Source: Candidatus Aenigmatarchaeota archaeon
GTDB taxonomy: Archaea > Aenigmatarchaeota > Aenigmatarchaeia > QMZP01
DNA length: 64,000 bases
Direction of reading: 5' to 3'
Assembly (NCBI GenBank): GCA_016198585.1
Contig: JACQII010000006.1
Span: 34,296-98,295, forward strand
In this document: positions 8,141 through 26,116 of the stretch, one piece after another
Numbering within the stretch: position 1 is the first letter of the stretch
Layout: each line of letters starts with the position of its first letter
Made by a program: the position numbers and the translations under genes
The notes under the pieces: generated by a model
Told to the model about the DNA's origin: nothing
Seen by the model: the letters and a program-made list of their open reading frames with translations, nothing else
Database searches by the model: none

Positions 8141-8165
8141 AAATATTCCCGTAGCAATATACACT

Positions 8166-8884: not shown

Positions 8885-10051
8885 ATGGAGTGGATCATCG
8901 CCGCCTTCTTGTCCCTCGCGCTGGCGTTCAGCGTCCTGGGCTGGCGCTGGGAGCGCCGGATGCGGCGGCCGCCGCTCACCCGGACGCCCCTGGTCTCGAT
9001 CCTGATCCCCTCGTATAACAACCCCCACCTACCCGATGCGGTCGCCTCGGCCAAGGCCCTGGACTACCCGAAGAAGGAGATCCTGGTCGTGAGTGAGGGC
9101 ACGCGCCCGAAGGTCACGGGCGTGCAGCTGCTCCACTCCCCGGTCCGGCAGGGGAAATCCCGGTCGCTCAACCAGGCTGTCCAGAAGGCGAAGGGCGAGA
9201 TCCTCTTCTTCATGGACGCGGACACCGTCGCTGATACAGACACCCTGACCAAGCTCGTCCCCTGGTTCCGCAAGGGCGTCGCGGCCGTCTCACCCAAGTT
9301 CACCGTGCGGAACCGGACCACGCTCCTGACGAAGCTCATCGGCCTGGAGCACCAGTTCATCTCCTCCCTGTTCAAGATCCACATGTCCTTCGGCAGCCTG
9401 ATCTCTTTCCGGGGCTGCGGGATCGCCATCTCCAGGGACGCGTTCCTCCGCCACGGCGGATGGCGGGAGACCGTCATCGAGGACACCGACCTCGCGGCGC
9501 GGATGGTCGCAGCGGGCGACAAGATCCTCTACGACCCGCATGCCGTCGTCCGGACAGTCGAGCCAGACACCTGGGCAGCCTACCGGCAGCAGCGGACCCG
9601 GTGGGGTCGCGGGACTGCCTTCTCCTTCCTGACCCACTACCGCTTCTACCTGAAGAACCCGCAGTTCTCCCTCTACATCTTCCCTTACCTGCTGCTCTTC
9701 CTCGCGATCGGCGGCTTCCTGCTCTACCAGACGAGCCTCGCGCTGCCCGCGGTCTCCCTCTACTTGATCTACACGCTCTCGATCCGCGAGGCCGTCGGCC
9801 TGCTCGCCCTGCTCGCCATCCCCCTCGTGGCGACCTATACCGGGGTCGGCGCCTCGGTCACGGCCGCCAGCATCACCCACTTCGCCATCGTCACGAAATC
9901 CGAACGCACCAGCCTGAAGGACCTGGCCCTCACCATCCCCTACGTGGCCGTGTTCTTCCCAATGACGATCAGCGTCTATGCCCGCGGCGCGCTCTCTGCC
10001 ATCGCGGACAAGCGCAACCGCCGGCCTGAACTCGACCTGCGGCGCTGGTAG
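8885..10051 (+). CDS. family-2 glycosyltransferase with C-terminal multi-TM domain
   Basis: ILIPSYNNPH...DADT (DxD), GT2 fold, then ~4 TM helices. ATG 8885 lies ~30 nt downstream of TATA TTATATAGCTATTTAAG. The track ORF starts at an upstream GTG. Confidence 0.7.
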   Translation: MEWIIAAFLSLALAFSVLGWRWERRMRRPPLTRTPLVSILIPSYNNPHLPDAVASAKALDYPKKEILVVSEGTRPKVTGVQLLHSPVRQGKSRSLNQAVQKAKGEILFFMDADTVADTDTLTKLVPWFRKGVAAVSPKFTVRNRTTLLTKLIGLEHQFISSLFKIHMSFGSLISFRGCGIAISRDAFLRHGGWRETVIEDTDLAARMVAAGDKILYDPHAVVRTVEPDTWAAYRQQRTRWGRGTAFSFLTHYRFYLKNPQFSLYIFPYLLLFLAIGGFLLYQTSLALPAVSLYLIYTLSIREAVGLLALLAIPLVATYTGVGASVTAASITHFAIVTKSERTSLKDLALTIPYVAVFFPMTISVYARGALSAIADKRNRRPELDLRRW

Positions 10052-10102
10052 CGCCTGGCCCGCGAACGTCCATCTTCTTGTCGGCCAACTCCCCAGGAGA
10101 AC

Positions 10103-10681
10103 TTACCGCGCGCGCGCAGTCCGCACCCTGCGGCCCGGCCGCAGGGAGAAGAAGACGTTGAGCGACGACGGGATCCCTGCCTCCTGGACCTGGAGTCCGA
10201 CATCCTGAAAAAGGGACCGCCATTCCCGGACGCGCAGGAAGCTGAGCGGGATTGGCATCCGGTACGCCAGGTTCGCCGCGTAGTCGTAGAGCGAGAGGAG
10301 GGCCTTGCTCACCTGATTCGTGTAGGTGTGGTCGAGGATGATGATGGATCCCTTCGTGACGCGCGCCGCCTCGCGGAGCAGCCGTTCCCGGTCCTGGGCG
10401 TGGTGGAGTATATAGACGAAGAGACAGGTGTCGAAACTCTTGTCCGGGAAGGGCAACCGCTTCCCGTCATAGAGCGCGGTCGGGATCTTCTGGACCCGGT
10501 AGCGGGTGACCTCGACGCCTTCGATCGCGACCCGGAGCCGGTCCTGCAGGAGCCGCTCGATCTCCCCCTGGCCGCAGCCCACGCTCAGGACCCGGCCGCG
10601 CGTGACGTGCGGCGCCAGCAGCCGGAACACCGTCTCCTCGTAATTGAAGACCCGCCGCAGCCGGGTGAATGCCTTCTCCAT
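10103..10681 (-). CDS. class I SAM-dependent methyltransferase
   Basis: VLSVGCGQGEIE glycine-rich SAM-binding motif I and downstream motifs. Confidence 0.7.
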   Translation of the reverse strand: MEKAFTRLRRVFNYEETVFRLLAPHVTRGRVLSVGCGQGEIERLLQDRLRVAIEGVEVTRYRVQKIPTALYDGKRLPFPDKSFDTCLFVYILHHAQDRERLLREAARVTKGSIIILDHTYTNQVSKALLSLYDYAANLAYRMPIPLSFLRVREWRSLFQDVGLQVQEAGIPSSLNVFFSLRPGRRVRTARAR

Positions 10682-10714
10682 GCCCGTTATTAATACCCGC
10701 GCAACATAAAAGGT

Positions 10715-11953
10715 ATGCTCCAGCTGACCGAGGAAGGCCGTCGCTACATCCGCGACGGCCTACCCGAGAAGCGGCTCATCGCGCTGGTCAAGAAACCAAC
10801 TCCGCTGGCCGGGCTGCAGATGCCCGACCTGGGTATTGCCTTGCAGTGGGCGAAGAAGCACGGCTGGGTGGCGATCGAGAAGGGCATGCTCCGGCCACTC
10901 GGCAAACCGCGCGACCTCCCTGAAGAAGCCGGTCTGCAGGCCGTCGCAGCGGGCAAGCCCGTCGACGCCCGGATCGCTGCCGTGCTGATCCAGCGGAAGC
11001 TGGTGCAGGAAGCGCGGGATGACCTCCGCCGGCAGGCCGAACGCCAGCTTGAGGAAGGCGTCGCCACGCTCACCCCTGAACTGATCGCCACCGGGCTCTG
11101 GAAGCAGGCAACCTTCAAGCCGTACAACGTCTCCTCGCCTGGGGCGGCCCGCCATCCCGGCAAGCGCCACCCGTACAACGCCTTCCTGTTCCAGGTGCGG
11201 CAGCGGCTGGTCGAGATGGGCTTCAAGGAGATGACCGGTCCGCTCATCGAGCTCGAGTTCTGGAACTTCGACGCCCTCTTCCAGCCGCAGAACCATCCCT
11301 CCCGGGACTGGACCCAGACCTATTCCCTGGCCTTCCCGACGACCGGCCGGCTGCCGGCGAAGAAGCTGACCGACCAGGTAAAGGCAGCCCACGAAGGCCG
11401 CCTGCCCGGAAGCACAGGCTGGGGCTACCGCTGGAACCCGGAAAAGGCTGCCCGGCTCATGCCCCGGGCGCATGATACGGCCATCTCCCCGCGCTACCTT
11501 GCGACTGGCGTCGAGGTGCCGGGAAAGTACTTCAACATCGTCCGCTGCTTCCGGCCCGACGTCATCGACGCGACCCACGGCGTAGAGTTCAACCAGACCG
11601 GCGGGTTCGTCATCGACCCTGACCTGACCTTCCGCCACCTGCTCGGCCTGCTGAAGGAGTTCGCCACCGAGTTCGCCGGCGCGGAGAAGATCAAGTTCAT
11701 TCCCGATTACTACCCCTTCACGGAACCTTCGATCCAGATGTCAGCGAAGCATCCCGATCTGGGGTGGATTGAGTTCGGCGGAGCCGGCATCTTCCGGGAA
11801 GAGCTGACGCAGGCGCTCGGCGTCCAGGAACCGGTGATTGCGTGGGGCGTCGGCATCGACCGCCTCGCCATGTTCCGCCTCGGCATCCGGGACATCCGGG
11901 AGCTCTTCACTCGGGATTTGCAATGGCTGCGGAGCCAGCCGGTGATCGCATGA
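10715..11953 (+). CDS. pheS: phenylalanyl-tRNA synthetase alpha subunit (archaeal)
   Basis: Class-II core ...FNIVRCFRPDVIDATHGVEFNQTGGFV... with N-terminal winged-helix region. Confidence 0.88.
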   Translation: MLQLTEEGRRYIRDGLPEKRLIALVKKPTPLAGLQMPDLGIALQWAKKHGWVAIEKGMLRPLGKPRDLPEEAGLQAVAAGKPVDARIAAVLIQRKLVQEARDDLRRQAERQLEEGVATLTPELIATGLWKQATFKPYNVSSPGAARHPGKRHPYNAFLFQVRQRLVEMGFKEMTGPLIELEFWNFDALFQPQNHPSRDWTQTYSLAFPTTGRLPAKKLTDQVKAAHEGRLPGSTGWGYRWNPEKAARLMPRAHDTAISPRYLATGVEVPGKYFNIVRCFRPDVIDATHGVEFNQTGGFVIDPDLTFRHLLGLLKEFATEFAGAEKIKFIPDYYPFTEPSIQMSAKHPDLGWIEFGGAGIFREELTQALGVQEPVIAWGVGIDRLAMFRLGIRDIRELFTRDLQWLRSQPVIA

Positions 11954-12180
11954 ACACGGTCGATTTCCCCGCGCTCCTGCAGCAGGCGCAGCGTTGTGCG
12001 AAGGGTGGGGTTCCCTGGCACTTCCACATCCTCACACCGAGCTGCCGGTTCAATGCGAAGAAGGAGTTCACGATCATCTTCGAGAACGAAGCGACGAAAG
12101 AGCAGCTCGCCTCCTCCTTTGCGCAGAAACCGCTCGCGCAAGGGGAGAAGCTGGAAGCGCTCTTCTACGGACGGGTGTAA
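11950..12180 (+). CDS. small conserved-looking protein (76 aa) translationally coupled between pheS and pheT
   Basis: ATGA overlap with the pheS stop and 2-nt gap before the pheT ATG. Composition is AT-codon-rich (K, F, I, N) against a GC-rich background, which argues for selection on coding. MNTVDFPALLQQAQRCAKGGVPWHFHILTPSCRFNAKKEF... Confidence 0.5.
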   Translation: MNTVDFPALLQQAQRCAKGGVPWHFHILTPSCRFNAKKEFTIIFENEATKEQLASSFAQKPLAQGEKLEALFYGRV

Positions 12181-12182
12181 CT

Positions 12183-13832
12183 ATGCCGACGCTCGAACTC
12201 TCGCACAAGGACCTGTGCTCCCTGATCGGGAAGCCAATCCCGAAAGATCAGGTCGCTGACGCGCTGCTCTACGCCAAGTGCGAGCTCGACACCCAGGACG
12301 GGGATGTCCTGCACGTGGACGCGAAGGACACCAACCGACCGGACCTCTGGTCGGCCGAGGGGATCGCCCGCGAGATTGCCGGCCGATTAGGGCGGCCAGG
12401 ACTGCCATCGCACCGCGCGACGAAACCAGTCCAGATCGTTGCCGTGACCGCCGGCGACGTCCACCCGTTCGCGACCGCCGCGATCATTCGCGACGTCACC
12501 CTCACCGAGGCCGCGCTCTCGCAGATGATCCAACTGCAGGAAAAGATCTCCACGAGCTTCGGCCGCGGCCGGCGTGAGATGTGCGCCGGGGCATATGACC
12601 TGGACCTACTGCGCTTCCCTGTCGCGTACACGACCAAGAAGCCGGAGGACATCCGGTTCGTCCCGCTCGGGTTCACACAGGAAATGACCGTCCGCGAGAT
12701 GCTTGCCACCCACCCCAAGGGGAAGGAGTACGGCCACCTGCTCACCGGGGCAGCCCGCTATCCGGTCTGGACCGACGCCACAGGCGCAGTCCTTTCCCTG
12801 GTCCCGATCACCAATGCCGCGGGCCCGGGCACGGTCACAACCAAGACACGGAACCTCTTCATCGAGTGCACAGGGACCTCACTTCCGATGCTCCAGACCG
12901 CGATCACGGTCATGGCGGCCGCGCTTGCCGACCGCGGCGGCACCGTCGAAGCCGTCACCCTACGGGGGCCGGGCAGACCAGTGATCTCACCCGACTTCAC
13001 CCCGAAGCGGGCAGTCGTCGCTCTCGACCAGCTGCGGGTCACCGGTCTCGACCTCTCCGGCACCCAGGCAGTCTCGCTGCTCCGACAAGCCCGCACCTTA
13101 CCGGTCCTAAAAGGACCACGGATCGAGGTCAGCTACCCCGCCTACCGGCAAGACATCATGCACGCCCGCGACCTTGTCGAGGACCTGCTGATCAGCGCAG
13201 GCTACGGTGAGATTGAACCGGTGGTTCCCCGCCTCGCGACACGGGGCGCAGCCGATCGGCGCGAACTGCTCACCGCTCGCGTGGCCGAAGCGGCTATCGG
13301 CGCCGGCCTGCAGGAGGTCATGAGCTACATCCTGACCAACAAGGACGCGCTCTTCTCACGGATGCAGCTGCCGCCGGGCAGGGCGTGCGAGATTGCGAAT
13401 CCCGTCAGCGCGACGTGGAGCGTGTTCCGCACCGGGATGCTGCCGTCGCTGCTTGAGTTTCTCTCGAAAAACAAGCACGTTGAGTATCCGCAGCAGGTGT
13501 TCGAGATCGGCGACTGCGTCCTCCCTGATGACCGGCAGGAGACCGGGACCCTGACGTCGCGGAAGCTCGGCATCGCGCTGACGGACGTGCGGGCCGGCTA
13601 TGAGAGCATCGCCGCAGTCCTGGATGTGATTCTCCGGACGCTCGGCGTACGCTACACCCTCGCGCCCACCAGCCATACCAGCTTCCTTCCCGGCCGGGTC
13701 GCGGCCGTCCTGGTGAACGACCGGCCGGCCGGCCACGTGGGCGAAATCCATCCGCAGGCCCTCAACAACTGGGGCCTGGAGAAGCCCGTCGCCGCCGCCG
13801 AGATCGACCTTGCCGCCCTAGAGACCGCATGA
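12183..13832 (+). CDS. pheT: phenylalanyl-tRNA synthetase beta subunit (archaeal)
   Basis: Starts MPTLELSHKDLCSLIGKPIPKDQV (B1-domain start typical of archaeal PheT); 549 aa. Confidence 0.85.
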   Translation: MPTLELSHKDLCSLIGKPIPKDQVADALLYAKCELDTQDGDVLHVDAKDTNRPDLWSAEGIAREIAGRLGRPGLPSHRATKPVQIVAVTAGDVHPFATAAIIRDVTLTEAALSQMIQLQEKISTSFGRGRREMCAGAYDLDLLRFPVAYTTKKPEDIRFVPLGFTQEMTVREMLATHPKGKEYGHLLTGAARYPVWTDATGAVLSLVPITNAAGPGTVTTKTRNLFIECTGTSLPMLQTAITVMAAALADRGGTVEAVTLRGPGRPVISPDFTPKRAVVALDQLRVTGLDLSGTQAVSLLRQARTLPVLKGPRIEVSYPAYRQDIMHARDLVEDLLISAGYGEIEPVVPRLATRGAADRRELLTARVAEAAIGAGLQEVMSYILTNKDALFSRMQLPPGRACEIANPVSATWSVFRTGMLPSLLEFLSKNKHVEYPQQVFEIGDCVLPDDRQETGTLTSRKLGIALTDVRAGYESIAAVLDVILRTLGVRYTLAPTSHTSFLPGRVAAVLVNDRPAGHVGEIHPQALNNWGLEKPVAAAEIDLAALETA

Positions 13833-13909
13833 AGGCGCTAACGAGCCTGCGGACCACTGCCCTCCGGTCTCTGCGAAAAAGATGAGCGATCCTTACCTGG
13901 GCTGGCCAG

Positions 13910-14653
13910 TCAGAACGGCCAGAACCGCCGTGGCGGCCGGTGAGGAACCCCGGAAAGCCGGGAAGCGATGAGCATGAACTCGCGGGACGCGAGCGACCGC
14001 GGCCGGTGGGTCACGACCGGGGTTTTGCGGGCCAGCGCGCGCTTCACCTGCTCGTCTTCGGGGATCAGCCCGAGGAGCGGCATGCCCAGGAAGTCCGCGA
14101 CCTCGAGCGGCGGGACGTCGTAGCCTTTCCCCCGGTAGCGGTTGACCACCACGCCGAGCGTGATCGCCCCGAACTCCTCGGCGAAACGGCCGAGTTTCAG
14201 GGCGTCGGTCATCGCCGGCAGGTCAGGGTTCGTCACGACGAGGACCTCGTCCGCGGCCTCGATGGCCGCGAGGGCTTCCTTTCCCAGGCCAGCGGCCGTG
14301 TCGACCAGCAGGAAATCAGCATCAGTCACCTTGTAGAAGACTTCCAGGAATTCGTTCGTGTCCGGGATCAGGAGCTTCTCCAGGGAGATGTCGGCCGGCA
14401 TCACGCGGAAGCCGCTGCTGTGGTGGTAGATCGCATCCTTCAACCGGGCCTTGCCGTTGAGGACGTCCTGAATCGTGATCGGGTACATGGGAATCCCGAG
14501 GTGGATGCCCAGGTTCGAAGTGGTGATGTTCGAGTCGACGGCGACGACGCTCTGGCCCAGGGCGGCGAGAGCAGCAGAGAGGTTGGCGACCACGGTGGTC
14601 TTCCCGACCCCGCCTTTGCCAGAAGCGACAGCAATGATCCTCGCCATAGCCAT
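13910..14653 (-). CDS. MinD/ParA-family P-loop ATPase
   Basis: Deviant Walker A IAVASGKGGVGKTT; Walker B LLVDTAAGL; ~245 aa. Confidence 0.8.
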   Translation of the reverse strand: MAMARIIAVASGKGGVGKTTVVANLSAALAALGQSVVAVDSNITTSNLGIHLGIPMYPITIQDVLNGKARLKDAIYHHSSGFRVMPADISLEKLLIPDTNEFLEVFYKVTDADFLLVDTAAGLGKEALAAIEAADEVLVVTNPDLPAMTDALKLGRFAEEFGAITLGVVVNRYRGKGYDVPPLEVADFLGMPLLGLIPEDEQVKRALARKTPVVTHRPRSLASREFMLIASRLSGVPHRPPRRFWPF

Positions 14654-14707
14654 TGTTTAGACAAGAGATATAAATCCTTGCTGACGCGTGCCGCTGAAAA
14701 TCCGCGC

Positions 14708-15232
14708 CTATCGCCTTTCCTCCCCCAGACGGGAGCGGATGTCGTCAGCGACCTCGGCGACCGTTCTGCCTTCCGTCTCTATCGGGATGCCGGCGTCAAA
14801 TGCGGCAGCAAGACGGTAGACGTCCGCCACATCTTTCGGCGTCAGTGACGTCTTCCGCTTCCTGTTCCGTCGGATGCAGGTATCGAGGGATGCGCGAAGG
14901 GAGAACACCTGGTGCCTGAAGGGGAGGCTGCGGATGAGGTGATCCAAATGGGTCGGCCGGTAGAAGCAGGCTTCGATGATCACGACGCGTCCTCGCAGGA
15001 GGCGGCGCTTGACGTCCTCCAGCAGGAGGAGATCACCCGCGATGAAGTTCTCCGCCGGTATGCCTTCACCCACAATGCGGTCCAATCCGTGGTCGGCCAG
15101 GACGGTGTCGAAGTGGACAACATGCGCGTCAAGCAACTTCCCGAGCCGCGAGGCGACCGCGGTCTTTCCCGACGCGGCGGGACCGCGGATAATGAGATAG
15201 TACCCCCTCGGGCCCCGTACCGGTGTGGACAT
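14708..15232 (-). CDS. P-loop nucleotide kinase-like protein
   Basis: MSTPVRGPRGYYLIIRGPAASGKT Walker A followed by kinase-like fold. Start moved to the internal Met so the CDS does not run through the tRNA. Confidence 0.6.
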   Translation of the reverse strand: MSTPVRGPRGYYLIIRGPAASGKTAVASRLGKLLDAHVVHFDTVLADHGLDRIVGEGIPAENFIAGDLLLLEDVKRRLLRGRVVIIEACFYRPTHLDHLIRSLPFRHQVFSLRASLDTCIRRNRKRKTSLTPKDVADVYRLAAAFDAGIPIETEGRTVAEVADDIRSRLGEERR

Positions 15233-15255
15233 AGGAATCCTCTCAAGATGCGCGA

Positions 15256-15353
15256 GCGGACCCGGTGGGGATTGAACCCACGGCCTCTCCCTTAGGAGGG
15301 GAGCGCTCTGATCCAATTGCCCACGCCGTTGGCGGCGTTCTGAGCTACGGGTC
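15256..15353 (-). tRNA. tRNA-Arg (anticodon CCU) with a probable ~22-nt intron in the D-loop
   Basis: Reverse complement GGACCCG-TA-GCTC-[AGAACGCCGCCAACGGCGTGGGCAATTGGATCA]-GAGC-G-CTCCC-CTCCTAA-GGGAG-AGGCC-GTGGG-TTCAATC-CCCAC-CGGGTCC-G. Perfect 7-bp acceptor stem, 5-bp anticodon stem, T33-CCT-A37, canonical T-loop TTCAATC. The D-loop is ~22 nt too long and contains an internal CGCCG-CCAA-CGGCG hairpin. No encoded CCA. Confidence 0.7.
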
Positions 15354-15435
15354 CGTGCTTAACATTGCCGCGGATGGTTTATATTCGGACCTTGCCCCGC
15401 CGGCCCGTTTATTAGTCGGCCGGCTAATACTCGAC

Positions 15436-16104
15436 ATGCAGCAGCTGGCCGCGCTTCTCCTGCTCGTTGCCGTTTCAGGGTGCACCACCTCGGTAACTGG
15501 CGATGCGGCCGCGGAGCCGCGCCCGATCGAGATCCAGGTCGAAACCGTCATCCCTGATCCTTGCGCCAACGTAACCTGCGCCCCTTCCCTCCTCAGCTGC
15601 CCGGACGGCACGACCGCCCGGTGTGACAACGCCTGTGCGGCCGGCAGCTGCTCGGCCTGCACACCGGCCTGCGCGAACCCGGGCTGTGCGGAGGACTGGG
15701 AGTGCACACCCTGGAGCGCGTGCGAGAACGGGACGCAGCAGCGATCCTGCCTTGAGCTGAACGGCTGCGGGACCGCCCTTGCGAAGCCCGGCCTCACCCA
15801 GGACTGCTTCTCCCTCGCGATCATTTCAGTCGACGCCGCCGGCGAGCGCGCCGTCATCAGGAATCTCGGCCTGACGGCGGCCAACCTACAGGGATGGACG
15901 TTGCGGGACGCAGCCGGCCATGTGTTCACCTTCCAGGCCTTCATCCTCCAGCCAGGGAGCGAGGTCGCCGTCGTGAAAGGGACCGGACCAGACACGGCAG
16001 CGACCCTGTCCTGGGGCAGCAACGTGAACGTCTGGAACAATGACGGGGACATCGCGACCTTGGCCGACGCCGAAGGGAACGTGGTGAGCGAACTCGCGTA
16101 CTGA
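15436..16104 (+). CDS. lipoprotein with Cys-rich region and C-terminal lamin-tail-like (LTD) domain
   Basis: MQQLAALLLLVAVSGC lipobox. About 25 Cys within ~90 aa. The C-terminus ...IRNLG..NLQGWTLRDAAGHVFTF..L.PG..VVV..G....W...NVWNNDGDIATLADAEGNVV matches the lamin-tail-domain pattern. The track ORF starts further upstream and overlaps the tRNA. Confidence 0.65.
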   Translation: MQQLAALLLLVAVSGCTTSVTGDAAAEPRPIEIQVETVIPDPCANVTCAPSLLSCPDGTTARCDNACAAGSCSACTPACANPGCAEDWECTPWSACENGTQQRSCLELNGCGTALAKPGLTQDCFSLAIISVDAAGERAVIRNLGLTAANLQGWTLRDAAGHVFTFQAFILQPGSEVAVVKGTGPDTAATLSWGSNVNVWNNDGDIATLADAEGNVVSELAY

Positions 16105-17086: not shown

Positions 17087-20000
17087 TTATCTGCCGTGGC
17101 CTTTCCAGGAGAACCGCTTCCGTTTCCGGTGCAGCGGGTGGTCTGTATGTGGGGTCCGGCGGGGCTTGAGCTTGCCGATGCCCCTCGTGATCCACCGACC
17201 GAGGGCGCGGGGGCTCAGCCGCTCCCGCAGCAGCGAGGCCCGGCGCTGCCTCGTCTCAGTCAGCAGGCTGCGCGTCTTAAGGATCTTGGCCTGGCCCTCG
17301 GTGAGGATCGTGTTGAAGGTGTTCTCGTCGATGATCCGCTTGAAGTACTGCTTCTCGGTTTCCACCCGCGTGTTCACCAGGGTCTTCTCCTCGCGGGTGA
17401 GGCGCATGATCTCCCTACCCATGCGGATGAACGGCGCCAGGATCTCGGCGACCAGGTAGGTCGCCAGGAGGATGACGATCGCCCCGAAGAGGATGATCCA
17501 CCGGTTCTCGAGGAGGAACTTGGTGATGGAGAGTTCAAAGAGTTGGCTCTCAGCTGCGTTGATGGAGTCGGCCGCGTAGTCCAGATTGGCCTCGAGGAAC
17601 CCAGGTTGGTCGGCCGCGATGTTCTTCTTCGCGTCCTCGAGGGCCGCCGCGACCCCGTCGGCGATGCTCTTCAAGCCCTCGACGCTCACGCCCGCTTCCT
17701 CGTACTGGGCGACCGTCTCCTGGAGCGCGGCCAGCTGCTGCTCCAGCTCGGCGATCTGGGGGATCAGCGCGTTCTCGAGGACCGTGACCTTGACTGCCTT
17801 GGTCTGCACGAGGCTCTTGAAGCTGAGGTTGAACGTGACCAGGTAGCTCCCGGTCGATTGGGTGAGCGGAGCCCGGATGGCCACGGCGACATCCACCCCT
17901 GCCTTGGGCAGCAGCTCGAACGCTGGGACTGCGGAAACCTCGCAGCATTGCTTGTCCACGACCGCAACCAGCTGCAGCAGCTGGTCGCCGGTGTTGGCGA
18001 CGCTGAGGATGACGCTCTCATTGCTACCCTGGATGAGCTCCAGCTCCACGGGGAAGGCGGTCAGGTTGAAGTCGAACACGCCCAGGCAGGCCGGAACAGC
18101 GATGCACTGGGAGGTCAGGTTGTTGCAGCCGACCGGGTTACAGACCCTGGTCTGGAACATCTGGTCAGGACTGCAGAGCCCGATCCCGCAGCCCTGGTTC
18201 ACCCATTCGCCGCACGTGCAGCCGGGGACGCCAGCGCCTCCCCCACCCCCGCCGCCTCCGCCCGAGCTGCCGCCTGACGAGGGCGTCGTCGTGGAGAGGG
18301 CAAGGTTCGCACTGCCCGTGTTATTGAAATCGTCTGTTGCATTTGCCGCGAGGACGAAGTTCGCTCCGTTCTCATCCTTCGCCCGGCAGGTCTGGGAGGT
18401 GTTCTGGTAGACATCCCCGGTCCCGTTCGAAATCATGAATGCCACGTTCGGGCACGTCAGGTTCGCGCTCACCAGGTAGGTGAGGTTCTCGTTCCGAACG
18501 TTCCTGATCAGGACCTGCGGGTTCGGGTCGGAAATGATCTGGTTAGCCGAGTAGCTTCCCCCAGCTGCGGGCTGGGTGAACGTCAGGACTAGGGACGCGG
18601 AGACATTGAAGGTGTAATTCAGGGCCAGCGTGCGGCCTTCCTTGCTGATGTTGATCGCAACCGTCCAGTTCCCAGCCGGATCCGAGGGGAGGATGGGCAG
18701 CGAGAAGTTGTTGGCGATCCCGCTCAGGTTCACCACCGAGGATTGATTGAACTTGGTCACGTTGACCGTCCACCTCACCTCAGTGACCGTTCCGTTCAGG
18801 CTGTCGATGACCGTGAAGTTGATGCTCTCCCCACGGTTATAGATCGTCCGGTTCACGGTCACATTGATCTTCTCGATCTCCACGATGCTGAGGTTGGCCG
18901 TGGTTGTATTTGATACTGATGCAGAGTACCAGATACCGGGCTGGTTAGTGATGCTACAATTAAAGCTCACGTTAAAGGTCGTCGAATTCACCAACGAAGT
19001 GGTATCGAGATACAGCCAGGAAGCCAGACCGGAAGAGTTGGTAAGGTTGTATCCAAGCAAGGTGTTATTCTTCCAGAAGCTCACATTGTAGCTCGGAATC
19101 ACCGCCGTCGAGTTCGAGTCTGTGACATTGCAGTATATGGTGACGTTACTGCCGTTAAGTATGCTCGTTGGGGAACTGAACGTGATGTTCCTTGCGTCCG
19201 CGTCCCCCAGGAGGGCAAAGGACTTGGACGCCGATGTTCCATTTTCCTGACCAAAGGTGTCTGTCGCATAGATCGCCGTGATATTGACTATTCCAGCGCG
19301 CGGGAATTGTGTATAGTTCGTGAGATTCAACGTGACATTTGTCCAGTTCCCCGTGAATGACGTGATTACGCTGTAATTCACGAACGTTCCGGTGGCATTG
19401 TGTTCGATTGTGGCGTTCAGCACGTTGTCGGTTATCCAAAGGGCTGAGGCTGTGAGGTTGTCGTTGCGGGTGAAGTTGATTCCATTACTGATGTTCTGTG
19501 TCGTGTCGTTTTTTATAGTGAAATTGAAGACGTTGTGAGGGGTACGATAGGTAATGTTGACGCGCACAAGGTCTATGCGGAGTTGCTTCACCGCTCCAGT
19601 TTGCGTATAGTTAAGTCTTACTGTGATGTTCTCAGTAAGCAACTGGGTTGATGTTATATTTGTAATGTTCAGTTTTATTAGTTCGTCGGTAGTGCCAGGA
19701 CATGTTGTATCATTCACAATATTCCACGAGCCATTAAAGACTTCGATAAAACATTTCGGAGTATTCAATAAGCTCGAGATGGACCATTCAACTTGTAACT
19801 CAACATAGAGAATGACGCTTCCGTTTAATAACTTTGTACTATTGAGTACAACTGTTAGATTTGCTGATCTACTCGATGAAACACTGAGACCAGAATCCGC
19901 ATAGATATCATCGCTAATGTTGACTTGATCGCAAGTGCAGGTTCCTTCTGCTCCAGAGTCGCCACAACTCAGAATTTGTGTGCAGTTTTGAAAAGATTGG

Positions 20001-20092
20001 GGATTTGAAACACCTGGTGATCTGACCAAGACCGCTAGAAACGAAATGAAGAGAAGGATAGATACAAACAATATCCCTCTTCTAATTTCCAT
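17087..20092 (-). CDS. large cell-surface glycoprotein, family B. Signal peptide, >50 N-x-S/T sequons, poly-Gly linker, Cys module, coiled coil, TM helix, ~110-aa basic cytoplasmic tail
   Basis: 1001 aa. The N-terminal ~410 aa are encoded by low-GC DNA. SSGGSSGGGGGGGGGAGVPGCTCGEW linker. Coiled coil IPQIAELEQQLAALQETVAQYEE. TM WIILFGAIVILLATYLVAEILAPFI followed by an R/K-rich tail. Confidence 0.8.
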   Translation of the reverse strand: MEIRRGILFVSILLFISFLAVLVRSPGVSNPQSFQNCTQILSCGDSGAEGTCTCDQVNISDDIYADSGLSVSSSRSANLTVVLNSTKLLNGSVILYVELQVEWSISSLLNTPKCFIEVFNGSWNIVNDTTCPGTTDELIKLNITNITSTQLLTENITVRLNYTQTGAVKQLRIDLVRVNITYRTPHNVFNFTIKNDTTQNISNGINFTRNDNLTASALWITDNVLNATIEHNATGTFVNYSVITSFTGNWTNVTLNLTNYTQFPRAGIVNITAIYATDTFGQENGTSASKSFALLGDADARNITFSSPTSILNGSNVTIYCNVTDSNSTAVIPSYNVSFWKNNTLLGYNLTNSSGLASWLYLDTTSLVNSTTFNVSFNCSITNQPGIWYSASVSNTTTANLSIVEIEKINVTVNRTIYNRGESINFTVIDSLNGTVTEVRWTVNVTKFNQSSVVNLSGIANNFSLPILPSDPAGNWTVAINISKEGRTLALNYTFNVSASLVLTFTQPAAGGSYSANQIISDPNPQVLIRNVRNENLTYLVSANLTCPNVAFMISNGTGDVYQNTSQTCRAKDENGANFVLAANATDDFNNTGSANLALSTTTPSSGGSSGGGGGGGGGAGVPGCTCGEWVNQGCGIGLCSPDQMFQTRVCNPVGCNNLTSQCIAVPACLGVFDFNLTAFPVELELIQGSNESVILSVANTGDQLLQLVAVVDKQCCEVSAVPAFELLPKAGVDVAVAIRAPLTQSTGSYLVTFNLSFKSLVQTKAVKVTVLENALIPQIAELEQQLAALQETVAQYEEAGVSVEGLKSIADGVAAALEDAKKNIAADQPGFLEANLDYAADSINAAESQLFELSITKFLLENRWIILFGAIVILLATYLVAEILAPFIRMGREIMRLTREEKTLVNTRVETEKQYFKRIIDENTFNTILTEGQAKILKTRSLLTETRQRRASLLRERLSPRALGRWITRGIGKLKPRRTPHTDHPLHRKRKRFSWKGHGR

Positions 20093-20940
20093 CTTCGAAT
20101 CCCTCCGTGATTTCCTCGATATATATAATAGGGAGGGATTATTAGAATAGCACAGAAAGATTCAGAGATCTGATGGAAGAGAAAGTTCTAGAAAGGGCTA
20201 ACAGAGGGATAATCGTCCTGAACCTGAAGTCCAATTCCCGGATCCGTATAGAAAGAGTCACAAATCATATCTGAATTGTCATCAACACAGCCTTCCGAAG
20301 ACTCGTCAAAGTTTGACCAGTAGTTGCCACTCTGTCCAGAGATCCAGATATTAGAAGTAGCTGAAGTGCTCAGGTAGACCTGATTCAAACCGTCATTATT
20401 CTCGATGAAGTTATTGCTATAAATAGCGTTCCCAGTAGTGGAAAAAAGCATCTCAAGACCAGCGATAGAATTGAATGTAATATCATTGCTTGCTATTACA
20501 CTATCTTTAACGCCATCAAAGCCCATTCCGCCAGCAAGATTTTCGCTAATAACATTGGAATAGATATTGTTCGTCATTGTGTTTCCACCAAAAACTCCAT
20601 ATCCGTCATTTCCAAAGACATTATTATCGTAAATATTGAATCCGTCTCCTCCTGACCACGAAATTCCGTGTTCTTCGTTACTAAACACTACAAGATTACG
20701 CAAAATAACATTATCTGATCCCAAATCGTCAAATACTCCAACAGCGAAGTCTCTGATGCTGAGATCTTCTACCACGAGTTGCGATCTCCCGTTGAGATTA
20801 ACGCCTACATCCGCATCGTGGTCGTCGTTACCATCAATCGTGAAGCCACCGCCATTGAAGACAACATTGTCCGCGTTGAAAGTGGCGCATGTACCGTCAA
20901 AGTTGTTGATTGTTTGGGTGAGCGTCACTTTGTCAAAATA
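18860..20940. other. ~2.1-kb low-GC (~40%) codon-atypical block spanning the 3' part of the beta-helix gene, the intergenic promoter and the 5' ~1.2 kb of the giant glycoprotein gene
   Basis: Sharp composition shift at both ends inside continuous ORFs. Third codon positions are A/T-rich within the block and G/C-rich outside. Confidence 0.7.
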
Positions 20941-22020
20941 GCCGTTCAGCCTGTCGCTGGCCTCCGTGCAGGAGGCCGCTGTCGCCGTCAGGTAGACCGT
21001 GAAGGGGATTTGGGGGGTGTCGGTGACTTTGCCGGCGAGGTCGACCGCGTGGAAGGTGACCTCGTGGCTGCCGCGCGCCAGGCTGACCTGGACTTCCCAG
21101 GTGTTCCCCGCCTGCTGGACCATCGAGAGGAAGGGACTGCCGTCGACCGAGTAGGTCGCTTGCTCGAGAGGCTCGTTCACGGTCATGGAGAGGGTGACCG
21201 GGGCAGGGGCGACGTTCACCGGCCCGTTGATCACCTGGCCGACTGTCGGGGACGTGGCGAGGATGGCCGGAGCGAGGTCGATGGTGAACAGCCCGACCGC
21301 CGTGGTGGGCTTGCTGGCGAGATCGATCGCCAGGACCTGGACCATGTAGTCGCCGCCGAGGGTAGTCGAGGTGAACATGCCTTCGTACGTGCTGCCGCTC
21401 GGTGTGAGCGTGACCTGGGTGACCGAGAGATCAGGAAGCGTGACCTCAGCCGTGACTGAGGCGATCCCAAAGTTGTCCGTCACCTCGGCGGTGACCGTCA
21501 CCGGTTCGTCCTGCTCGAAGGTCTCCCCGTTCGGGACCAGGACGGTGACTTCAGGGGGGGTCGTGTCAACGACGGCGAACCCGGACAGGGCGATGCCGCT
21601 GGGCGCGTTCAGGATCTTGGGTTTCGCCACGACCTGGAGAGCATATTGGCCGAGCTCGACCGGGTTGAACGTGGCCTCATAGACGTTGCCGTTCTTGAGC
21701 ATCTGCAGGATCTGTGGGCCGCTGGGGGTGTCCAGAGTGGCTTTCACCGAGACCAGGGAACCGGCGTAGGTGACCTGGGCCTGGATCAGGACTTGACCAG
21801 GATATTCTACTTGGAGATCAGGAAGAGGGCTCAGGATGGTTACGATCGGTCCCGGCTGGGAGGGCAAGGTCGTCGGCTTCGGCCGGCCGCTGGTCGCGAT
21901 CGAGGGAGAGCTGGACCCGAGTCCGCTATAGGTAGATAGTTGAGCGGCAGCGAGCTGGGCAATCGCCAGCGTCGACGCTAGGAAGACTCCCATGACCACC
22001 AGGATGACGAGCTTCTGCAT
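20188..22020 (-). CDS. secreted protein with Ig-like domains and a C-terminal right-handed parallel beta-helix (PbH1/CASH, NosD-like) domain
   Basis: Signal peptide MQKLVILVVMGVFLASTLAIAQLAAAQ. Repetitive N.I..N.. units (ILRNLVVFSNEEHGISWSGGDGFNIYDNNVFGNDGYGVFGGNTMTNNIYSNVISEN...) characteristic of beta-helix repeats. The beta-helix part lies in the low-GC block. Confidence 0.7.
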   Translation of the reverse strand: MQKLVILVVMGVFLASTLAIAQLAAAQLSTYSGLGSSSPSIATSGRPKPTTLPSQPGPIVTILSPLPDLQVEYPGQVLIQAQVTYAGSLVSVKATLDTPSGPQILQMLKNGNVYEATFNPVELGQYALQVVAKPKILNAPSGIALSGFAVVDTTPPEVTVLVPNGETFEQDEPVTVTAEVTDNFGIASVTAEVTLPDLSVTQVTLTPSGSTYEGMFTSTTLGGDYMVQVLAIDLASKPTTAVGLFTIDLAPAILATSPTVGQVINGPVNVAPAPVTLSMTVNEPLEQATYSVDGSPFLSMVQQAGNTWEVQVSLARGSHEVTFHAVDLAGKVTDTPQIPFTVYLTATAASCTEASDRLNGYFDKVTLTQTINNFDGTCATFNADNVVFNGGGFTIDGNDDHDADVGVNLNGRSQLVVEDLSIRDFAVGVFDDLGSDNVILRNLVVFSNEEHGISWSGGDGFNIYDNNVFGNDGYGVFGGNTMTNNIYSNVISENLAGGMGFDGVKDSVIASNDITFNSIAGLEMLFSTTGNAIYSNNFIENNDGLNQVYLSTSATSNIWISGQSGNYWSNFDESSEGCVDDNSDMICDSFYTDPGIGLQVQDDYPSVSPF

Positions 22021-22166
22021 GCTTCCCTTCCCTGAACGCCTCTTGATTTTTCGCTTAATAAAGGTGTATCACGGTGTTGTGTTAATTACTTGGTAGTGAC
22101 AGTATTTAAAGCTTTCCAGGCGCCCAAAACCGCCCTTTTAAGGGCCGGAGCGAATATAATATCTGC

Positions 22167-22895
22167 ATGGCCACCGACAGGATCCCGACCGGTGTCACCG
22201 GCCTGGACAGCAAGATGCAAGGCGGGTTCTTCCCAGGCAGCGTCAACCTCATTACCGGGAGGACGGGGACCGGGAAATCCACCTTCTGCTCCTCCTTCCT
22301 GTACGCCGGCGCCCTGAAGAAGGAGCCTGGCCTGTACATCACGACCGAGGAACGCGAGCAGGACATCAAGGGCGACATCCAGGCCATGTTCGGCTGGGAC
22401 TTGGAGAAGCTGGAGAAGCAGAAGCTGCTGAAGTTCATCTCCCTGAAGCCGGTCTTCCCGGGCAAGAAACTGAGCCTGGACGACATCAACCGCCTCATCA
22501 AACTCTACGTGTTCGACGTCTCCGAGCAGCTGGACCAGGGGATCAAGGCCGTCAAGGCCCGGCGCGTGGTGATTGACTCGGTCTCGATCATCGAGATGTT
22601 CATCAAGGATGAGTACCTCTCCCGGACCGTGCTCATGCACATCGTGGAGAAGCTCAAGTCCCTGGGCGTGACGTCGCTCTTCACCGGGACCGTACCCGAG
22701 ACGTCTGAGGGCCTCTCCGGCGGTGGGATCATAGAGTACCTGGTCGACGGCGTGATCAAGCTCGACTTCGTGCCCGTGGCGGAGGAGTTCAAGCGCACGC
22801 TGACGATCCGGAAGATGCGGCGCACGGATCATTCGGTGATGATCCATCCCTTTGACATTGCCAAGACCGGACTGAAAGTTATCGAGATTAAGTAG
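22167..22895 (+). CDS. KaiC-like single-domain RecA-superfamily ATPase
   Basis: IPTGVTGLDSKMQGGF...LITGRTGTGKSTF (Walker A)...GLYITTEE...VVIDSVS (Walker B)...IRKMRRTDH. Confidence 0.75.
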   Translation: MATDRIPTGVTGLDSKMQGGFFPGSVNLITGRTGTGKSTFCSSFLYAGALKKEPGLYITTEEREQDIKGDIQAMFGWDLEKLEKQKLLKFISLKPVFPGKKLSLDDINRLIKLYVFDVSEQLDQGIKAVKARRVVIDSVSIIEMFIKDEYLSRTVLMHIVEKLKSLGVTSLFTGTVPETSEGLSGGGIIEYLVDGVIKLDFVPVAEEFKRTLTIRKMRRTDHSVMIHPFDIAKTGLKVIEIK

Positions 22896-22944
22896 CCCCT
22901 TCTTTGTAGGGAGCTTCTGGAGAACACAAAAAATACTTGCGACC

Positions 22945-23628
22945 TCAGATCTCCGACTGCCGGATGGCGATGCCCTTCTTGCTGATGACCATGGGGTAGA
23001 CGTCCTTCCCATGATCGGTCCGGCGCATCTTCCGGATCTGCAAACTCCGGGAGGTCGAGCCCTCGACACCCAGGTAGCTTAGCACGATGACCGCGTCAGC
23101 CACGAACTCCTCGACCCCGAACATGCTCAGGCCCTTGGAGCCCTCGGGAATGTCGGCCATGAGGAGGGCAGTCGTGTGGCCGGCGCGCTTGATGGTACTG
23201 ATGATGCCATAGAGCTTCTTGCGGATCTGCGCAGGGTTCTCCATGGCGAGGGTCATGACCGACGTCGAGTCGATCGCCAGGCGCTTGGCCCGCGAGCGGC
23301 TGAGCTCGTCGAGGATCACGGTCCCGATGTTGTTGATCTGGGCAGGGTCATGGTAGATGATCTTGCAGAGGCCCTTCTTCTCGTACTTCTGGAAGTCCCA
23401 ACCGAACTGCAGGGAGTCCGCCCGGATGTCTTCAGGGGTCTCCTCCAGGGTGATGTAGAGACCAGGGTCCCCCCGTTCGAGGCCGTGGTAGATGAACTGT
23501 GAAGCCAGGATAGTCTTCCCACACCCGGTCCCGCCGGACACCAGGATGACCGAGTTCTCCACCAGCCCGCCTTCGATGAGACTGTCGAGTCCCGGGATGC
23601 CGGTCTTGACCCGCTGCAGTAGCGGCAT
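22945..23628 (-). CDS. KaiC-like single-domain RecA-superfamily ATPase (paralog of 22167..22895)
   Basis: VKTGIPGLDSLIEGGL...VSGGTGCGKTIL...GLYITLEE...LAIDSTS...IRKMRRTDH; clearly paralogous to the convergent neighbour. Confidence 0.75.
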   Translation of the reverse strand: MPLLQRVKTGIPGLDSLIEGGLVENSVILVSGGTGCGKTILASQFIYHGLERGDPGLYITLEETPEDIRADSLQFGWDFQKYEKKGLCKIIYHDPAQINNIGTVILDELSRSRAKRLAIDSTSVMTLAMENPAQIRKKLYGIISTIKRAGHTTALLMADIPEGSKGLSMFGVEEFVADAVIVLSYLGVEGSTSRSLQIRKMRRTDHGKDVYPMVISKKGIAIRQSEI

Positions 23629-23743
23629 GGTATATTATGGGTCGCGGCCTCTTAAGAGCTTGTGAGACCGGCCAGCGACCGCGAAGAAGCGCGCACAAGA
23701 GCGGTCCTGCAGCTATTTTAAGCTTGCAGCCCCATTGGTGTCC

Positions 23744-24808
23744 ATGGACATCATGGCGTACCTGGACGCCCAGAAGCAGCAGATTGACACCCTCATCCGC
23801 CGCTACCTCCCCCAGACCATGGACGCCAAGGAGGTGGAATGGCTCGCAGGCAAGCCGCGGTTCGCGCATGACCGGGAAGCCATCGCCAACAGCCTCCTCG
23901 TGCCGAGCTGGGACCTGCTCAACCGCGGCGGCAAGCGCTGGCGACCTGCATTGTTCCTCCTCCTCGTCGAGGCGCTCGGCGGCGACGTGAACAAGGTCCG
24001 CGACGTCGCGATTCTCCCCGAGCTGGTCCATAACGGGACCCTGATCATCGACGACATCGAAGACGGCGGCGAGGTGCGCCGCGGCAAGCCTTGCCTCCAC
24101 AAGATCTACGGGATCGACATCGCCATCAACGCGGGCAACTTCCTCTACTTCCATCCCCTCCTGACCTTTGCCAAGCAGGCTGGCCGGTTCGACGACACGA
24201 CCCTGCGTCGCGCCTACGAGGCCTACGCGCAGGAGATGATCAACGTGAGCATCGGCCAGGGGACGGACATCTACTGGCACAAGGGCAAGAAGTCCCGGAT
24301 CAGCGAGGAACAGTACCTGCAGATGTGCGCCTTCAAGACCGGCTGCCTCTCACGGCTGGCTGGCCGGCTGGCGGCCATCTTCGCCGGGGCCGACAAGGCG
24401 GCCGAGGACAAGGTCGGCCGGTTCTGCGAGTCCGTCGGGATCGCCTTCCAGATTCAGGACGACATCCTCTCCGCGACCGCGACGGGCGAGTTTGCCAAGC
24501 GGAAAGGCTACGGCGACGACATCACCGAGGGCAAGCGCTCGCTCCTCGTGATCCACGCCCTCGGGAAGGCCGACCCCGAGGACCGGCTGCGTCTCCTGGA
24601 TATCTTGAACCGCCACACCCGGGAGGAGAAGGCGATTGCGGAGGCCCTGGCGATCCTGAAGAAGTACCAGTCGGCCGAGTATGCCAAGCGCATCGCCCGG
24701 ACCCTCGTCGAAGACGCGTGGGAAGCCCTGGAACCTGAACTGGACGCGTCGCACGCCAAGGAGCTCCTCGCCAGCCTCGTGCGCTTCGCGACTGAGCGCC
24801 AGATCTGA
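23744..24808 (+). CDS. idsA: geranylgeranyl diphosphate synthase (trans-polyprenyl synthetase)
   Basis: First Asp-rich motif LIIDDIEDGGEVRRG and second motif FQIQDDILS. TATA GCTATTTTAAGC 27 nt upstream of ATG 23744. The track ORF starts at TTG 23735. Confidence 0.8.
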   Translation: MDIMAYLDAQKQQIDTLIRRYLPQTMDAKEVEWLAGKPRFAHDREAIANSLLVPSWDLLNRGGKRWRPALFLLLVEALGGDVNKVRDVAILPELVHNGTLIIDDIEDGGEVRRGKPCLHKIYGIDIAINAGNFLYFHPLLTFAKQAGRFDDTTLRRAYEAYAQEMINVSIGQGTDIYWHKGKKSRISEEQYLQMCAFKTGCLSRLAGRLAAIFAGADKAAEDKVGRFCESVGIAFQIQDDILSATATGEFAKRKGYGDDITEGKRSLLVIHALGKADPEDRLRLLDILNRHTREEKAIAEALAILKKYQSAEYAKRIARTLVEDAWEALEPELDASHAKELLASLVRFATERQI

Positions 24809-24857
24809 GAGAAAGGAGACGGCGCAATCTTCTTAAACGCCCGCGCCAATAGCAGGC

Positions 24858-25043
24858 ATGGACATCCGCGGCAGGCTGCGGGACTATCGGCGCGTGCTCC
24901 AAATCGCGCGCAAGCCCACGAAGGATGAGTTCACCACCTCGGCCAAGGTCACCTCGGTCGGGCTGCTGATCATCGGCTTCATCGGCTTCCTCATCTTCCT
25001 GCTCTTCATCGCCAGCTGCAGCATGGCCGGCATCTTGTGCTGA
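24858..25043 (+). CDS. secE: protein translocase subunit SecE / Sec61-gamma
   Basis: 61 aa, ...[33 protein letters not shown] single C-terminal TM. Conserved position upstream of spt5-rpl11. Confidence 0.75.
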
Positions 25044-25055
25044 AATGGGTGGTTT

Positions 25056-25433
25056 ATGCGTTTCTTGGTAAAGAAAATCGTTGTTGATAGAGGCGTAAGT
25101 TTGACGGCGTCGCCAGACTCCACTAAATACGAGTTGAATGATATAAAGCGTGCCTGGGTAGATTGCGAATTAACGAATGGAGAGACCTCTGAGATCACCC
25201 TAATAATTGAAGGAATTAATCGTGGACGATACCTCACGATAAGTATAAAGAAAGGCTCAATTGAAACGCGTCATGCAATGATAATATTACTTAAAGCGCT
25301 TTTTAACCTTCTTCAAAAGAAGCCGTTTAACCCTATTGATTCTTCGGGAAATATTTGTATCTTAAGCGTAGACGAACTGGAAATTCTTGGAGCTTTACAT
25401 AAGATCAAGGATATGGGAGGTCTTGACATCTAA
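25056..25433 (+). CDS. hypothetical protein encoded in low-GC island
   Basis: 125 aa; ~33% GC with AT-rich third positions, in contrast to the flanks. Confidence 0.5.
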   Translation: MRFLVKKIVVDRGVSLTASPDSTKYELNDIKRAWVDCELTNGETSEITLIIEGINRGRYLTISIKKGSIETRHAMIILLKALFNLLQKKPFNPIDSSGNICILSVDELEILGALHKIKDMGGLDI

Positions 25434-25507
25434 CAATCGGTTATGAACTGGATGTATCTCAGGACTTTTTCCAAGAGTCGGTCTTGTTCAATGTTGGGTA
25501 GTTAATT

Positions 25508-25969
25508 TCATCCCATGGTGATTTTTTCGCTAAGAAAGAAGGAGATGAAAAAAAGAAATATGATATATAATAAAGAGAACGTGGTATAAAACAAATAGTC
25601 AGAAACCAACATTTTAGAATATATGAACACATCATGAGCGATGAGTGATACAGAAACACTAGAAGTGAGTAGATTGAAATCTTTTTCTGACAAATAGTTT
25701 TCCTCTCTGACAGTAACCTTCTTTTTGATTCCTAATAGTTTAGTGAGCTTACTAAGAATAACATAGACAGGAAGAGAAAGGTGCTTTATAACAAAGGTGT
25801 AAGACAGAGTTAGTAAGAAGTAAGAGGCAATGGCCATCAGAAAAGGAAAGCTCTGAACAGAGACTTCAATGTTGAAGGAACTCGTGAGGATCTTCGCGAG
25901 AAATCCCACAATCACAGATGTTAAAGCAAGGGAGATTTCGGGCCTCTTTGTGTCATAGTCAATAGACAT
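25508..25969 (-). CDS. hypothetical 4-TM membrane protein encoded in low-GC island
   Basis: 153 aa, several hydrophobic helices, ~30% GC. Confidence 0.5.
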   Translation of the reverse strand: MSIDYDTKRPEISLALTSVIVGFLAKILTSSFNIEVSVQSFPFLMAIASYFLLTLSYTFVIKHLSLPVYVILSKLTKLLGIKKKVTVREENYLSEKDFNLLTSSVSVSLIAHDVFIYSKMLVSDYLFYTTFSLLYIIFLFFISFFLSEKITMG

Positions 25970-26116
25970 CGGATAGTAATTGATAGCTTGCTATAAAGCT
26001 AATGCCATGAGTATTTGTGCTAACTTGATTTTCTATACAAGCCTCTCATGATAACGTTTATAAACCCCCGCGGCAGATATCAACTATTCTTCGCAGCTTC
26101 ACTGGCTAGGGGAACC

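Follow-up and report, generated by a model that had tools for sequence, protein, structure and literature searches.

A small low-GC islet separates secE from spt5 in a high-GC Aenigmarchaeota genome

Introduction

Small genomic islands and islets gained by horizontal transfer have been widely inferred in DPANN and Aenigmarchaeota genomes (PMC8407114). Published metagenome-assembled genomes (MAGs) of Aenigmarchaeota have GC contents of 25–48% (PMC8407114), and against this background the islet described here has a composition typical of the phylum, while its host is the outlier. The islet (25044..26116) is 1,073 nt long with 37.9% GC and separates secE from spt5 in an Aenigmarchaeota (DPANN) contig. 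The whole 64-kb stretch of this contig that we analyzed, hereafter the window, has a GC content of 62.5%.

Like other horizontally acquired islets, this one deviates strongly in composition from its surroundings, is absent from the orthologous site in relatives, and carries hypothetical genes, one of which (ORF1) has relatives in mobile- and defence-rich regions. It differs from them in its length of only ~1 kb, in the absence of an integrase, a tRNA target, att repeats and IS ends, and in its position inside the highly conserved secE-spt5-rpl11 cluster, which is not a typical island site. It resembles two-gene toxin-antitoxin and abortive-infection modules in being small, in pairing a soluble with a membrane protein, and in lying in foreign DNA. 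Unlike such modules, its two genes (ORF1 and ORF2) are convergent, are not conserved as a pair elsewhere, and match no family.

Results

Gene content and base composition of the locus

The islet and its flanks hold the following genes (window coordinates):
24858..25043, + strand: secE (Sec61-gamma; SEC61-gamma in NCBI, MBI4020971.1), a host gene forming the left flank; Pfam SecE, E = 7e-6; GC3 0.94
25056..25433, + strand: ORF1, a 125-aa soluble protein of a rare five-member family; start ATG at 25056; 38.9% GC
25508..25969, − strand: ORF2, a 153-aa membrane protein with 3–4 transmembrane (TM) segments, recognized from coding statistics and hydropathy and absent from the NCBI annotation
26117..26932, + strand: spt5 (NGN and KOW domains, acidic tail of ~120 aa; MBI4020973.1, 271 aa), a host gene forming the right flank, identified with Pfam and aligned with its counterpart in L001
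26929..27537, + strand: rpl11, a host gene with which the conserved cluster goes on; Pfam L11 N- and C-terminal domains

The flanks carry SecE, Spt5 (NGN + KOW) and L11 domains in the order of the archaeal secE-spt5-rpl11 cluster, and genes for L1 and L10 lie further downstream of L11. The same SecE-Spt5-L11 order was found in L001 and in metagenome relatives. The true start of spt5 is the ATG at 26117, as in the 271-aa NCBI product, and not the ATG at 26048. No tRNA and no Rfam family was detected within the 64-kb window.

The compositional switches at the islet edges were very sharp. The initial annotation had described a segment of ~1 kb with ~32% GC; the length and the low GC content held, while ~32% turned out to be the minimum, reached in 300-nt windows (32–33%), and not the mean given above. 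GC3 was 0.39 for ORF1 and 0.42 for ORF2, compared to 0.82–0.93 in six flanking host genes, which bore out the earlier statement that the codon usage of both genes is unlike that of the host. Both open frames, of 125 and 153 aa, were recovered where they had been placed, with 3–4 TM segments for ORF2 in place of the four first assigned. The open frames exceeded chance: in 5000 shuffles of the whole islet, the longest was reached 17 times and the second longest never.

Only one other sizeable low-GC patch was present in the window (19361-20880, ~42% GC). It covers the 3' end (a NosD/beta-helix C-terminus) of a gene for a 610-aa Big-domain surface protein (20188..22020, − strand), the intergenic gap, and the 5' end of a gene for a 1001-aa protein rich in Asn-x-Ser/Thr sequons (17087..20092, − strand). 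Outside the patch, both genes have ~64% GC. Its appearance suggests either that recombination replaced a segment spanning the two genes or that surface domains rich in Asn, Ser and Thr bias the composition.

Three housekeeping proteins of the neighbourhood bear long low-complexity extensions. Spt5 (26117-26932) ends in an Asp/Glu-rich tail of ~120 aa that is missing from L001 Spt5, L11 (26929-27537) has a low-complexity, Ala/Lys/Glu-rich C-terminal tail, and L1 (28617-29564) has a low-complexity, Pro/Ala/Lys-rich N-terminal extension of ~100 aa. Two convergent genes for single-domain KaiC-like ATPases, 22167-22895 (+) and 22945-23628 (−), lie directly upstream of GGPPS-secE, and one of them is kept at the same place in L001.

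The secE-spt5 junction in relatives

In the GTDB genome L001, whose Spt5 is 65% identical to that of the window, the gene order is KaiC-GGPPS-SecE-Spt5-L11 and the secE-spt5 gap is 7 nt. A metagenome scan with the Spt5 alignment yielded 80 further loci. Among the 75 relatives in which both secE and spt5 were found automatically, 73 had a gap between −7 and +77 nt, compared to 1070 nt in the window, and the earlier premise that secE is normally followed directly by spt5 was thus confirmed. The two exceptions were L080 (220 nt) and L083 (537 nt). By manual inspection, the gaps were ~10 nt in L010, ~75 nt in L009 and ~250 nt in L008, and L084 was found to hold a Nudix remnant. The Nudix sequences at this junction were:
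L083 403-939: an intact Nudix hydrolase ORF between secE and spt5, in a more distant low-GC clade
L080 2801-3020 and L084 1-346: degraded Nudix remnants between secE and spt5, in the clade of L083

A Nudix gene in the window sits after rpl11 instead (27539..28000). The interruptions in L083, in L080 and L084, and in L008 resemble that of the window in that extra DNA is tolerated at the same junction; they differ in their unrelated content and in their host-like composition, which is foreign in the window.

The closest relative was L006 (Spt5 81% identical), whose contig starts 123 nt upstream of spt5. SecE is absent from this stub (L006 1-123), which has 36% GC compared to 53% in the rest of the contig. 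The ~250-nt spacer between secE and spt5 in L008 (31-284) holds no ORF. With the AT-rich stub of L006 and the spacer of L008, the junction is loosened also in the nearest relatives of the window. Homology of the L006 stub or the L008 spacer to the islet did not rise above that of shuffled sequences. Since the 123 nt upstream of spt5 in L006 are low in GC and lack SecE, secE and spt5 may have become separated before the present cargo arrived.

No ORF1- or ORF2-like sequence was found in ~85 related loci. The same two genes with host-like composition, which would indicate an old pair, were looked for in the relatives and did not appear. None of the relatives amenable to inspection has the islet, which bears no sign of amelioration, in agreement with the foreign insertion first proposed.

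L001, with a core of ~55–60% GC, has low-GC islets of its own elsewhere in the same conserved neighbourhood. One, at 6741-8220 between a TM/coiled-coil gene and rpl1, encodes a 162-aa protein with a weak DarG-like match and a 246-aa protein with an acylphosphatase-like domain; the other, at 1-2860 upstream of the KaiC gene, carries a methyltransferase. Low-GC islets thus seem to be recurrent in the high-GC lineage.

Borders and assembly support

The initial annotation had pointed to 25044..25060 and 26040..26116 as places where att-like or short direct repeats might lie, and none was found at the islet borders. The only repeat at the edges was a 10-nt inverted repeat (90% complementary), the right arm of which overlaps a TATA-like box. 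Searches for the hallmarks of an IS element or MITE revealed no convincing terminal inverted repeats, target-site duplication or transposase, and the hallmarks of an integrative element were missing as well, with no integrase in the islet, no tRNA in 64 kb, and no direct repeats at the borders.

Two Logan assemblies gave independent support for the left side. L002, a single-run assembly, matched window positions 20985-25499 at 99.98% and thereby covered the left junction and all of ORF1. L003, from a second run, covered the left junction and reached 17 nt into the islet. The right junction (25500-26593) was seen in the source contig alone, and look-ups of the exact products of ORF1, ORF2 and Spt5 returned no record that would support it.

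We also considered whether the Logan contigs end at the islet edge owing to strain polymorphism, and rejected this. L003 (SRR12113384) starts with AGATGTGTATAAGAGACAG (positions 1-19), an untrimmed adapter in a public assembly that we take to be the Nextera/Tn5 mosaic-end adapter. Because L003 begins with adapter sequence, the contig ends reflect thin coverage and not polymorphism. The islet is probably not an assembly artefact.

ORF1 and its family

The sole database match by identity to ORF1, the NCBI entry MBI4020972.1, was called 3 aa short; the MxFxVK N-terminus, which is conserved in the homologues, places the start at ATG 25056. When 1.84 billion cluster representatives were searched exhaustively with HMMER, two full-length relatives emerged, P0002 (47% identity, E=6e-22) and P0003 (41% identity, E=1.5e-14). 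A profile search added P0004 and P0005, bringing the family to five members in 5.8 billion proteins, with 39–50% identity between ORF1 and its four homologues. ORF1 is a real gene and a bona fide member of this rare, uncharacterised family.

Cys37, Glu38, Cys101 and His115 were among the residues invariant in the family alignment; the two cysteines and the histidine may mark a metal or catalytic site. AF2 modelling with the five-sequence alignment gave a pLDDT of 76 and a pTM of 0.70, with a predicted topology of beta4-alpha-beta2-alpha (from the single sequence, the pLDDT was 37 and the model unusable). Structure comparison of this predicted alpha/beta fold found no known relative. As had been noted from the sequence, neither islet protein belongs to a recognised family: nothing significant was obtained for ORF1 or ORF2 from Pfam, NCBIfam, PADLOC or PHROGs. 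A tblastn search of ORF1 against phage and plasmid records also returned nothing, and scans of IMG/VR with both proteins and of metagenomes with ORF1 gave no relatives and hence no donor.

Other members of the ORF1 family sit, on other archaeal contigs, in variable regions rich in integrase, transposase, antitoxin and defence genes. In L086, the neighbours of the homologue (P0002) include TrmB/HTH proteins, an AAA ATPase and a tyrosine integrase, and a DISARM-like DrmA/DrmB pair lies alongside. In L087, the homologue follows a DDE transposase at a distance of 33 nt, has MazE nearby, and lies in a patch of 35–42% GC that ends right after the homologue and abuts an archaeal core of 56–60% GC (CDC48, histone). 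In L088 and L089, it adjoins NYN, GNAT and acylphosphatase genes. ORF1 is thus related to genes of mobile and variable regions, as expected for the cargo of a genomic islet, while ORF2 has no relatives.

The DrmA (E=2e-79)/DrmB pair of L086 and a further large gene (10028-15628) adjoin the integrase-bearing segment that holds P0002, which has 33–44% GC next to DNA of 24–35% GC. The L087 homologue was also considered as an IS passenger. The only inverted repeat was 19 nt long and 84% complementary with its right arm inside the homologue, and we judged it to be due to chance.

The hosts of L086, L087 and L088 offered no core genes in common with the window host for a comparison of relatedness. 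ORF1-family genes had 36.9–38.9% GC in hosts of ~29, 43, 57 and 64% GC, and this constancy across hosts argues for a shared mobile pool and not for long residence in any one host.

ORF2, a gene-sized frame missing from the annotation

The NCBI accessions of SecE, ORF1 and Spt5 are consecutive, which shows that ORF2 was skipped; the annotated record of the MAG has a gap of ~680 nt where ORF2 (25508-25969, −) lies. The statistics of ORF2 are those of a coding gene. Among 5000 shuffles of the ORF2 segment that preserved dinucleotides, one matched its open frame of 160 codons. Codon position 2 was 46% T and 7% G (a strong periodicity), and the GRAVY of ORF2 was 0.78 compared to 0.21 ± 0.19 in in-frame shuffles. 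In its hydropathy profile, three segments were strongly hydrophobic and one or two others less so.

None of the searches that we ran, PDB sequences included, found a homologue of ORF2, and tblastn against phage and plasmid records gave only sub-threshold matches to UbiA. In several comparisons, residues 7-78 showed a weak resemblance to the stretch of UbiA-family prenyltransferases that follows the first Asp-rich motif, with 38–45% identity to the TKRxR...G segment and the next two helices. Every statistic for this likeness was sub-threshold. The NCBIfam matches (E = 0.057 and 0.076) were far below the cut-offs, tblastn against UbiA genes of rhizobial plasmids gave E = 0.07, and the hhalign probability was 42.5%. 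All four tblastn matches at E <= 10 were UbiA, but they are mutual orthologues, and the Smith-Waterman score of 94, compared to 36 ± 6 for shuffles, is biased in that the subject was chosen as the best hit. Pfam and PDB sequence searches lent no support to the link.

ORF2 also differs from UbiA prenyltransferases in size (153 aa with 3–4 TM segments, compared to ~290 aa with 8–9) and in the absence of both catalytic Asp-rich motifs, NDxxDxxxD and DxxxD; it begins just past the position of the first. No further remnants of UbiA motifs were found around ORF2, other frames included. That ORF2 is a truncated UbiA-like relic is possible, but in our estimate less likely than not.

Putative expression signals

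The promoter and operon assignments given here are predictions from the spacing of motifs. The elements considered were:
25044..25055, + strand: a 12-nt spacer, aatgggtggttt, with a GGTGG Shine-Dalgarno-like motif, preceding ORF1
25434..25507, no strand assigned: the convergent intergenic region between the stops of ORF1 and ORF2, with a T5 run at 25466-25470 on the + strand
25991..25997, − strand: TTTATAG, a TATA-box-like motif starting 28 nt upstream of the ORF2 ATG
26057..26064, + strand: TTTATAAA, a TATA-like motif 60 nt upstream of the spt5 ATG

The spacer aatgggtggttt resembles the GGTG-containing secE-spt5 spacers compared in more than 20 relatives and may be the ancestral secE-spt5 spacer. 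This likeness suggests that insertion took place at or next to the spt5 start, with ORF1 inheriting the coupled slot behind secE. No bacterial-type hairpin terminator was found in the convergent region (25434..25507), and the T5 run could possibly act as an archaeal oligo-T terminator of a secE-ORF1 transcript.

The spacing of TTTATAG weakly suggests the geometry of a leaderless archaeal mRNA for ORF2. Sites of the form TTTATAWA occurred three times in the 64 kb, compared to 0.06 expected; TTTATAAA is one of them, and another, at 56253, lies just upstream of a host gene. TTTATAAA may be a new promoter of spt5-rpl11, now uncoupled from secE. All these motifs count as weak evidence, as AT-rich DNA often contains TATA-like hexamers.

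Discussion

Alternative explanations

A chimeric join of a low-GC fragment from another organism into the contig would account for the very sharp compositional switches, and the source is a metagenome-assembled genome whose right junction is not reproduced by independent assemblies. Against this, the left junction and all of ORF1 recur at 99.98% in a separate single-run assembly, with the junction present in a second run too. The genes on both flanks are correct in order and orientation, which would require two precise chimeric joins ~1 kb apart, and ORF1 starts 12 nt past the secE stop behind a well-formed spacer. We regard such an artefact as extremely improbable. Alternatively, the islet could be decaying junk left over from a mobile element or a UbiA-type gene, in which neither ORF is functional and the frames are open only through recency. 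No mobility genes remain in the islet, NCBI left ORF2 unannotated, the Logan gene caller did not call ORF1 on L002, and ORF2 weakly resembles a UbiA fragment without the catalytic Asp-rich motifs. However, ORF1 is full-length, keeps the N-terminus and the family-invariant columns, and has a start codon and a Shine-Dalgarno-like motif that are correctly placed, while ORF2 combines strong codon-position periodicity, hydrophobicity beyond its composition and a correctly spaced TATA-like element. We therefore consider decay of both genes unlikely.

The initial annotation had likened the pair to a toxin/immunity or abortive-infection module, in which a membrane toxin would be paired with a soluble antidote or the reverse. 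The pairing of a small soluble protein with a membrane protein in foreign DNA fits this idea, as do the neighbourhoods of the ORF1 homologues, which hold MazE, NYN and DISARM-like genes. Yet phmmer and tblastn found no ORF2-like sequence at the loci of the other four ORF1 homologues, and ORF2 is not a conserved partner of ORF1. The two genes (ORF1 on +, ORF2 on −) converge with their stops 74 nt apart and do not form a co-directional operon, no toxin, antitoxin or defence match was obtained from PADLOC, Pfam, PHROGs or NCBIfam, and ORF2 lacks any homologue and may be a truncated relic. The comparison was not upheld by these results, and a module of this kind seems very unlikely to us.

Proposed origin of the islet

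The islet is compositionally foreign, and the junction that it interrupts is tight in nearly all relatives. We consider it likely that the islet is ~1 kb of recently acquired, un-ameliorated DNA, drawn most likely from a low-GC archaeal (DPANN-type) mobile pool and inserted into the few-nt secE-spt5 spacer. A foreign fragment would have landed in this spacer in an unusually high-GC Aenigmarchaeota genome, its cargo being a piece of a larger mobile element and not a self-contained module. This cargo would consist of an intact small cytoplasmic accessory protein (ORF1) and a small membrane ORFan (ORF2), the latter maybe a truncated UbiA-like relic.

ORF1 would now hold the Shine-Dalgarno-coupled slot behind secE that is normally that of spt5, and is probably co-transcribed and expressed with secE, whereas ORF2 would be read convergently as a leaderless mRNA from its own TATA-like element. 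The AT-rich right end may have brought a TATA-like promoter (TTTATAAA) that restored transcription of spt5-rpl11. The fragment would have been tolerated because both essential neighbours remained intact and expressed.

A more far-reaching proposal is that ORF1 founds an undescribed archaeal mobile-element family with a new alpha/beta fold and a Cys/Cys/His set, that the secE-spt5 junction is a recurrent landing site in the subclade (with different inserts in the window, L006, L008 and the L083 group), and that cargo arriving there gains expression from the coupled position after secE and supplies spt5 with a substitute promoter. Taken as a whole, this proposal is improbable in our estimate.

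Significance

Horizontal acquisition of a small islet is a well-known kind of event, and current understanding is unchanged by this one; only its location and the ORF1 family are mildly novel. The recent acquisition at this site is of value mainly as a clean, dated case in which DNA entered an Aenigmarchaeota lineage of unusually high GC content and has not been ameliorated. It also flags a gene-sized ORF (ORF2) missing from the public annotation and an uncharacterised family of five proteins (ORF1) that keeps company with mobile and defence regions of archaea. The islet shows that foreign DNA can be accommodated even in the tightly coupled secE-spt5-rpl11 cluster of a reduced DPANN genome, apparently through a re-wiring of expression in which the cargo takes the Shine-Dalgarno-coupled slot and spt5 may gain a new TATA-like element.
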